Source: a virus. From it: a stretch of 15,568 bases of DNA. Numbering within the stretch: position 1 is the first letter of the stretch; each line of letters opens with the position of its first letter. The position numbers and the translations under genes are program-made. Shown in pieces: positions 6,269 through 6,847 of the stretch. The stretch lies in the UHGV virus genome UHGV-0473420. One strand, 5' to 3'. The notes below the pieces were generated by a model that was not told where the DNA came from, did no database searches, and saw only the letters and a program-made list of their open reading frames with translations.

Positions 6269-6847
6269 ATGAAAGGCGAAGTGAAAGAGCGCGGCATGAT
6301 TTTTAACGATGAGATGGTCCGGGCAATTCTTGGCGGGAATAAAACACAGACTCGCAGGATTGTTGAAGAAAAATTCTATGGACGGGCAGTGGCCGCAGAG
6401 TTGCTTGCCAAGCATTGTCCATATGGTCAACCGGGCGATCGTATTTGGGTTCGCGAAACCTACCGGGTACATGGCAAAGCGACGGACGTCGCAACGCTGG
6501 TTTATCGCGCAAGTGTGCGTAACTCCTGGACAGAACAAACGCACCGGGTTCCGGTCGAGGTTTGTAATAAACCAGTATCAGAAAAGTGGACGCCATCAAT
6601 TCACATGCCGCGCTGGGCATCGCGCATTCTTCTGGAAATTACCGACGTGCGTGTGGAACGGCTACATGACATGAGCGAGGCAGATGCTAAAGCAGAAGGT
6701 GCAACTCCGGCGACGTACAAGATTACGCCACCTGAAGCTGTTTATCGCGTTGGTTTTGGTGATATCTGGCGCAGTATTTACGGGCAGGATAACTGGCTAT
6801 CTAACCCGTTGGTATGGGTAATCGAGTTTAAGCGCATTCAGGAATAA
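6269..6847 (+). CDS. ASCH domain protein (YqfB-like, PUA-like fold)
   Basis: N-terminal F-x4-VRAILGGNKTQTRR, GDRIWVRE and C-terminal VWVIEFKRI match the ASCH hallmark pattern as recalled from E. coli YqfB. Start may be ATG 6269 or ATG 6296. Confidence 0.65.
   Translation: MKGEVKERGMIFNDEMVRAILGGNKTQTRRIVEEKFYGRAVAAELLAKHCPYGQPGDRIWVRETYRVHGKATDVATLVYRASVRNSWTEQTHRVPVEVCNKPVSEKWTPSIHMPRWASRILLEITDVRVERLHDMSEADAKAEGATPATYKITPPEAVYRVGFGDIWRSIYGQDNWLSNPLVWVIEFKRIQE

Follow-up and report, generated by a model that had tools for sequence, protein, structure and literature searches.

The gene at 6269-6847 (plus strand) of the stretch of viral DNA analysed here (the window, 15,568 nt) codes for a PmgT-family protein of 192 amino acids whose predicted structure has an ASCH fold. 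Given the YqfB-like fold, a Thr-type octapeptide and an invariant Glu143, a role on modified nucleobases is the best guess at its function. More specifically, PmgT-type ASCH proteins would be YqfB-like Thr/Lys/Glu amidohydrolases that act on an acylated base, as an early and non-essential accessory function of the phage, a reading to which we give an even chance of being right. The fold assignment is already known in substance, from the label that PGAP gave to the allele of plasmid p1292 and from metagenomic viral relatives named ASCH, and a Vibrio phage homologue is already annotated with a PUA-like structure. New here are the likely placement of P1 PmgT among the Thr-type (YqfB-clade) ASCH proteins with an invariant set of predicted catalytic residues, the description of a family-specific insertion, and the size of a family whose tested members all score under the Pfam threshold.

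The ORF is a genuine gene, as its whole length matches PHROG 874 (E 1.5e-83), homologues occur in 347 phage records spanning many hosts, and most of its differences from a relative of 60% identity are at third codon positions (35/30/101 differences at the first, second and third). Three ORFs that overlap it (6152-6544 and 6303-6620 on the minus strand, 6309-6674 on the plus strand) were treated as shadow ORFs; the codon-position pattern and the conservation of the family both favour the plus frame of the 192-residue protein. The gene begins with ATG at 6269, preceded by a Shine-Dalgarno sequence (GGGGG, 6260-6264), and ends with TAA at 6845-6847; its product has a pI of 9.1.

Evidence for the ASCH fold is weak by sequence methods and strong by structure. 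The earlier note had proposed this fold from three motifs, all of which are present in the protein (KTQTRR at residues 25-30, GDRIWVRE at 56-63 and VIEFK at 184-188), and had suggested the ASCH HMM and structure prediction as checks. With the HMM (PF04266) the protein scored 14.9 bits (E 0.044), below the gathering threshold of 21.2; 27 of 44 relatives likewise gave weak, sub-threshold matches (best E 3.4e-4). No precomputed Pfam domain was found on any protein among the matches listed by two homologue searches, NCBIfam gave no match to the protein, and a PDB sequence search, with phmmer and with a 44-sequence profile, gave none at E<=10. The first homologue search had returned only sequences at least 96% identical, and a profile of four distant phage homologues was used instead; an alignment of 44 diverse relatives was then built for structure prediction. 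The resulting AlphaFold (AF2) model has a pLDDT of 87.7 and a pTM of 0.84 and shows an ASCH/PUA-like β-barrel with flanking helices. ASCH proteins (YqfB, L. crispatus ASCH, PH0355, EF3133 and ZmASCH) fill the top ranks of its Foldseek matches in the PDB, and a viral structure library also gave proteins named ASCH, including the metagenomic viral relatives. On YqfB the model superposes at 2.0 Å over 98 of 102 residues with 24% identity, more than any other of the structural matches listed. At the level of the predicted structure, the ASCH fold is therefore confirmed, as the second check had been meant to decide.

The predicted active site is of the YqfB kind. The octapeptide G23-N-K25-T-Q-T28-R-R30 (6335-6358, plus strand) belongs to the YqfB 'GK[T/S]R' type and fits the ASCH pattern G-x-K-x-x-[E/T/S]-x-R; hhalign places it on G19-R-K21-T-I-T24-I-R26 of YqfB in an alignment that is confident for the octapeptide only. 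Across 194 diverse relatives, K25 is conserved in all, and T28 and R30 in 193 each. To our knowledge, K-x-x-[E/T]-x-R is conserved across all ASCH proteins, including proposed binders or nucleases. Thr or Ser at the sixth position of the octapeptide, which is T28 in the window protein, is the mark of the YqfB clade, and Glu that of the TRIP4/EOLA1 clade (bioRxiv 10.64898/2026.08.01.741249; 10.64898/2026.02.27.708502). In YqfB, activity is lost in the mutants K21A, T24A and R26A and lowered 100-1000-fold in E74A (PMC6972931). The predicted counterpart of this catalytic Glu74, from alignment and conservation, is E143, which like the adjacent G144 (6695-6700, plus strand) is found in 194 of 194 relatives. 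A permissive full-length hhalign alignment (probability 30%, low confidence) runs without gaps from L132 to E143 on L63 to E74 of YqfB, pairs D139 with His70 and Y171 with Tyr89, and brings together the C-terminal VIEFK that the two proteins share. The pairing of E143 with Glu74 is thus of low confidence as an alignment, although the superposition of almost the whole of YqfB is in line with it. The likeness to YqfB claimed in the earlier note is in this way upheld by the Thr-type octapeptide and by the invariant Glu that probably corresponds to Glu74.

Like E. coli YqfB, an N4-acetylcytidine amidohydrolase (PDB 1TE7, 9KYF, 9KYH), the window protein combines the ASCH barrel with the octapeptide, a C-terminal VIEFK strand and a Glu that aligns at the Glu74 position, and it is standalone. 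It is also clearly different from that enzyme. YqfB has 103 amino acids, and the window protein, with about 90 extra residues, departs from the roughly 100-residue size; the median length in its family is 221 amino acids (150 representatives). His70 and Tyr89 of YqfB are substrate contacts and 100% conserved in the YqfB clade (PMC6972931), whereas the PmgT family has Asp at the His70 position (D139; 166 of 194 relatives) and does not conserve Tyr89, for which the window protein has Y171 and 154 of 194 relatives have Asn. Two insertions relative to YqfB span roughly residues 35-50 and 64-120, the latter of which holds the family-specific motif W107-T-P-S-I-H112-M-P-R115-W-A-S-R119 (6587-6625, plus strand), a WxPSIHMPRWASR segment that has no counterpart in the YqfB alignment; P109, M113 and R119 are found in all 194 relatives, R115 in 191, W107 in 182 and H112 in 176 (otherwise F or Y). 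Also invariant in the family are E63, N179 and seven arginines, and the protein is basic, a further difference from YqfB. The family-specific residues E63, H112, R115, R119 and N179 suggest a pocket that differs from that of YqfB or extends it.

A different chemistry on the same fold would be another reading. The protein could be a single-strand RNase like ZmASCH, for which RNase activity was reported (PMC5615036), or a base-flipping DNA enzyme like BapA, an ASCH-like 5hmC glycosylase (bioRxiv 10.64898/2026.02.25.707755). Glu-type ASCH proteins (TthASCH, EOLA1, the TRIP4 ASCH domain and ZmASCH) share the fold and the Lys and Arg of the octapeptide (bioRxiv 10.64898/2026.02.27.708502). However, ZmASCH falls in the Glu (GKER) subgroup and the window octapeptide is of the Thr type (bioRxiv 10.64898/2026.02.27.708502), and among the structural matches listed it is YqfB that comes highest in identity, at near-complete coverage. 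In addition, 18 of 194 relatives have Phe or Tyr in place of H112, a pattern that suits stacking more than catalysis. We therefore regard a change of chemistry as quite unlikely.

The family in which these residues are conserved is very large: when 1.84 billion cluster representatives (50% identity) were searched with a profile, 56,248 matched at E<=1e-3, and 31,217 still did so at E<=1e-30. Its members occupy the early accessory region of temperate phages and lambdoid prophages. Outside P1-like loci, the recurrent neighbours are RecT (15 loci), integrase (12), a TraR/DksA zinc finger (11), DUF4060 (9), Dam methyltransferase and lambda P (8 each), and MT-A70 and one further methyltransferase (5 each). 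An effector domain was seen in none of the 150 representatives inspected, and PmgT-family proteins are standalone. The PADLOC models gave no match at E<=0.01 for the window protein or nine neighbours, and membership in a known anti-phage defence system was rejected on the basis of this empty search.

These surroundings bear on whether the protein acts on a base or only binds one. As a non-catalytic reader, the ASCH/PUA-like barrel would bind a base, possibly a modified one, in RNA or DNA, to shield it or to recruit other factors without hydrolysis. Domains of the PUA superfamily (EVE, YTH, SRA and ASCH) sense modifications (PMC12707154, PMC7641849, PMC12191111), the pI of 9.1 and the seven invariant arginines would suit such binding, and the methyltransferases listed above lie within three genes of family members, in clusters of 8, 5 and 5 whose loci may overlap. 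However, binding would not need Lys, Thr, Arg and Glu to be kept so strictly at the positions of the YqfB catalytic residues, and 19 of 19 ASCH proteins tested were catalytically active, removing ac4C from tRNA (bioRxiv 10.64898/2026.02.27.708502). Unlike the PUA-like sensors of type IV restriction (EVE, YTH and SRA), which are fused to nucleases or NTPases, the window protein has hydrolase-type residues and stands alone, as do the 150 representatives in which no effector domain was seen; its similarity to those sensors is much weaker than to YqfB-type ASCH. A reader function is accordingly unlikely in our view, and hydrolysis of an acylated base is the reading kept below.

By identity and gene order, the window can be assigned to a P1-like phage-plasmid. 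E. coli plasmids of about 96 kb match it at 97-98% identity, and positions 269-6360 are colinear with P1 at 97.5% identity. The genes run pmgL, pmgM (VRR-NUC), pmgN, pmgO, pmgP, ppp, pmgQ, pmgR, pmgS and pap, followed by the ORF at 6269-6847. In sequence and in position this ORF is evidently the homologue of P1 pmgT (Upf86.8 in P7, gp99 in JL22; PHROG 874), with which it shares the place after pap and the C1 operator OpmgT. Its product is 42.8% identical to P1 PmgT (tblastn, E 3e-41) and 84% identical to JL22 gp99. As the block of P1 identity stops 92 nt inside the gene, the window appears to carry a different allele, joined by recombination within the conserved N-terminus. The hypervariable region of P1-like plasmids contains the pmgT gene (PMC9603915). 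The JL22 paper describes pmgT as 'replaced' (PMC9603915); contrary to that description, gp99 of JL22 is a pmgT homologue. Two other features were seen near the PmgT-like genes of other P1-like elements: in JL22 (locus L089, 3001-4705) an adenine methyltransferase gene lies three genes downstream, and in the chromosome of E. coli strain 131 (locus L087, 6001-7461) a PAPS-reductase-family gene follows directly.

P1 matches the window up to 6360 and then resumes from 13733, and about 6.9 kb of lambdoid-type genes (6848-13732) are absent from P1. These genes downstream of pmgT in the window include Ead/Ea22, DUF7739 and DUF551 genes, of the same kind as the early accessory genes of lambdoid phages. 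Three neighbouring genes (10083-10478, 10688-11137 and 11345-12283) have a common N-terminal module, M-[IT]-T-[IF]-T-[KR]-E-[RQ] ... [IV]-[AV]-L-A-[AS]-L-E-[AV]-E-P-[IV] as read by eye in the translations, and different C-termini, that of the last being DUF551; they make up a modular lambdoid accessory family. Farther on, two adjacent paralogues (14017-14382 and 14382-14687) with the common C-terminal pattern WxxFxCxDHxxWxDELDxSFPYFxExxxCPxCR represent a tandem duplication of a small zinc-ribbon-like protein that has no Pfam match.

The P1 reference allele of pmgT differs markedly from that of the window. P1 PmgT (309 amino acids; locus L001, 6001-7070) diverges from the window protein in the middle, continues after about residue 231 as an out-of-frame reading through the homologue of window gene 13434-14114, and is without the last strand of the barrel. 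Judged from this comparison, the reference P1 pmgT looks like a deletion chimera and truncated, P1 pmgU is probably a remnant of the homologue of window gene 13434-14114, and the window allele, unlike that of P1, is intact. In E. coli plasmid p1292 (locus L086, 2501-3679) these two genes have been fused a second time, independently; the product is in frame and 392 amino acids long; residues 1-183 form a PmgT-like domain and the remainder resembles window gene 13434-14114. This fusion allele is the one annotated by RefSeq/PGAP as an 'ASCH domain-containing protein'. No obvious repeat was seen at the two junction regions.

The operators and promoters upstream suggest how the gene is controlled. 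A C1 repressor operator (OpmgT, formerly Op88, in P1; Op(hea) in P7) lies at 6074-6090 on the plus strand, where it overlaps the -35 region of the promoters; its sequence, ATTGCTCTAATAAATCT, departs from the consensus at one position and is the same in P1. A scan with the P1 C1 operator consensus gave four matches in the window, with 0.08 expected by chance, at 309-325 (minus), 3933-3949 (plus), 3982-3998 (minus) and 6074-6090 (plus). The last three correspond to OpmgRa, OpmgRb and OpmgT of P1, and the C1 operators divide the region into separately repressed units. Two predicted sigma-70 promoters, P2pmgT and P1pmgT (6075-6118, plus strand), were transferred from the P1 annotation (locus L001, 5807-5850), on which they rest, as a sigma-70 consensus scan of the window did not list them; the window is the same as P1 over the promoter stretch, and 4 of 261 aligned positions differ in the operator/promoter region.

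Within the 5' leader of this plus-strand operon is a GC-rich hairpin of 10 bp (6123-6145), also conserved in P1, which scores as an intrinsic terminator on the minus strand only, where a T-run follows. It is succeeded by a small hydrophobic ORF of 28 amino acids (MNTAFKIIMAAIYFWLFSITFGGIVAHG; 6173-6259, plus strand; 44 amino acids from an alternative start at 6125), preceded by AGGAG and ending 9 nt before the start of the ASCH gene. P1 encodes exactly the same amino acids without an annotation, and in JL22 the ORF is listed as gp98; its product may be a leader peptide or a small protein of the membrane. In this arrangement, a transcription unit begins at a predicted C1-repressed promoter immediately after pap, and the gene at 6269-6847 is its first of any size. 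The gene would stay off in the lysogen and be switched on early, once repression is lifted or a cell is infected. In this it also departs from YqfB, which is chromosomal and in some prokaryotes linked to tmcA, the window gene being phage-borne and C1-repressed.

Such control sits poorly with the inherited name 'morphogenetic protein', which would make PmgT a protein of virion morphogenesis. The only basis for that role is the P1 label 'putative morphogenetic function', which has been propagated to UniRef and NCBI names. However, P1 pmgT is non-essential, as found by CRISPRi and in earlier deletions (PMC10695390), and its promoters in the P1 annotation are of the sigma-70 type under C1 control, with no late one listed for it. 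The fold is that of an enzyme or a nucleic-acid-binding protein, relatives in lambdoid prophages lie in the early recombination/integrase region, and the P1 allele that carries the label itself appears truncated and chimeric. A morphogenetic role was rejected on the non-essentiality (PMC10695390), the promoter type and the fold, and we give it next to no credence.

The earlier note had placed the gene downstream of a putative glycosylation module and suggested that it may erase or read a nucleoside modification there. The module consists of P1 pmgO (1373-2035), pmgP (1933-2559) and pmgQ (3230-3931). The first two are overlapping MptE-like/DUF115-type paralogues, below the Pfam cut-off, that match PHROG 4603/2111 ('alpha-2,3-sialyltransferase'), and pmgQ matches PHROG 1962 ('glycosyltransferase'). 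These labels, and the fact that all four genes share a 6-kb stretch in P1-like elements, would allow the ASCH protein to work with pmgO, pmgP and pmgQ in reading or erasing a sugar-related modification of nucleosides or DNA. We know of no glycosylation of P1 DNA. The three genes end 2.3 kb upstream of the ORF, pmgR, pmgS and pap separate it from pmgQ, and the C1 operators at 3933-3949 and 3982-3998 intervene, with the ORF having its own operator and promoters. Moreover, homologues of pmgP or pmgQ were found near a family member in only 5 of 82 loci, and there is no glycosyltransferase among the 20 largest neighbour clusters of the family. As all five loci are P1-like, the proximity to sugar-transferase genes is lineage-specific synteny and no conserved association. 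A joint function with these genes is very improbable. All three of pmgO, pmgP and pmgQ are non-essential in P1 (PMC10695390). Thus, of what the earlier note proposed, a role on modified nucleobases stands as the best guess, and the link to glycosylation is not borne out by the separate operators and the 5 of 82 loci.

If the YqfB-like reading is right, K25, T28 and E143 would lie close together in the fold, K25 would serve as the base, T28 as the nucleophile, E143 as the acid and R30 in the oxyanion hole, and the amide of a nucleobase would be hydrolysed. The model substrate would be an N4-acylated cytosine, that is ac4C as a nucleoside or in RNA. The two insertions, the seven invariant arginines and the pI of 9.1 suggest a polymer (tRNA, another RNA or DNA) or a different acylated base, not a free nucleoside. 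The preprint on removal of ac4C from tRNA is opposed by a second, according to which YqfB and EOLA1 use ac4C only in its free form, and the natural substrate class is thus disputed even among characterised enzymes. The function would be accessory and non-essential, and would lie outside both virion assembly and the pmgO/P/Q sugar-transferase group. No functional study of the PmgT family was found in the literature on pmgT and on ASCH proteins in phages.

A wider hypothesis is that the PmgT family consists of phage Thr-type ASCH hydrolases, with an extra His/Arg-rich insertion, that act early as an 'eraser' of an acyl mark on nucleic acid, for host takeover or counter-defence; we consider it quite unlikely. 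Candidate targets might be ac4C34 of host tRNA-Met in enterobacteria, or acylation by a host defence system or toxin. TmcA, the bacterial writer of ac4C in tRNA, is confined to γ-proteobacteria (PMC2500205), whereas the phages that carry relatives include those of Salinibacter, Paracoccus, Agrobacterium, Burkholderia, Myxococcus and Microcystis, with α- and β-proteobacteria among the hosts. With relatives in phages of hosts outside the γ-proteobacteria, ac4C34 of tRNA-Met is unlikely to be the general target, and it was downgraded as a family-wide one.

At present the result is an improvement in annotation and not a surprise, for a gene that in P1 is dispensable in the laboratory. The misleading name 'morphogenetic protein' gives way to a testable prediction, a YqfB-like hydrolase with K25, T28, R30 and E143 as its predicted catalytic residues, and the new name covers both P1 pmgT and a very large, uncharacterised family of early genes of temperate phages. 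If the activity proves true, the recently recognised ASCH 'deacylase' enzymes would extend to phages, and one would have to ask which acylated base it is that a phage needs removed.
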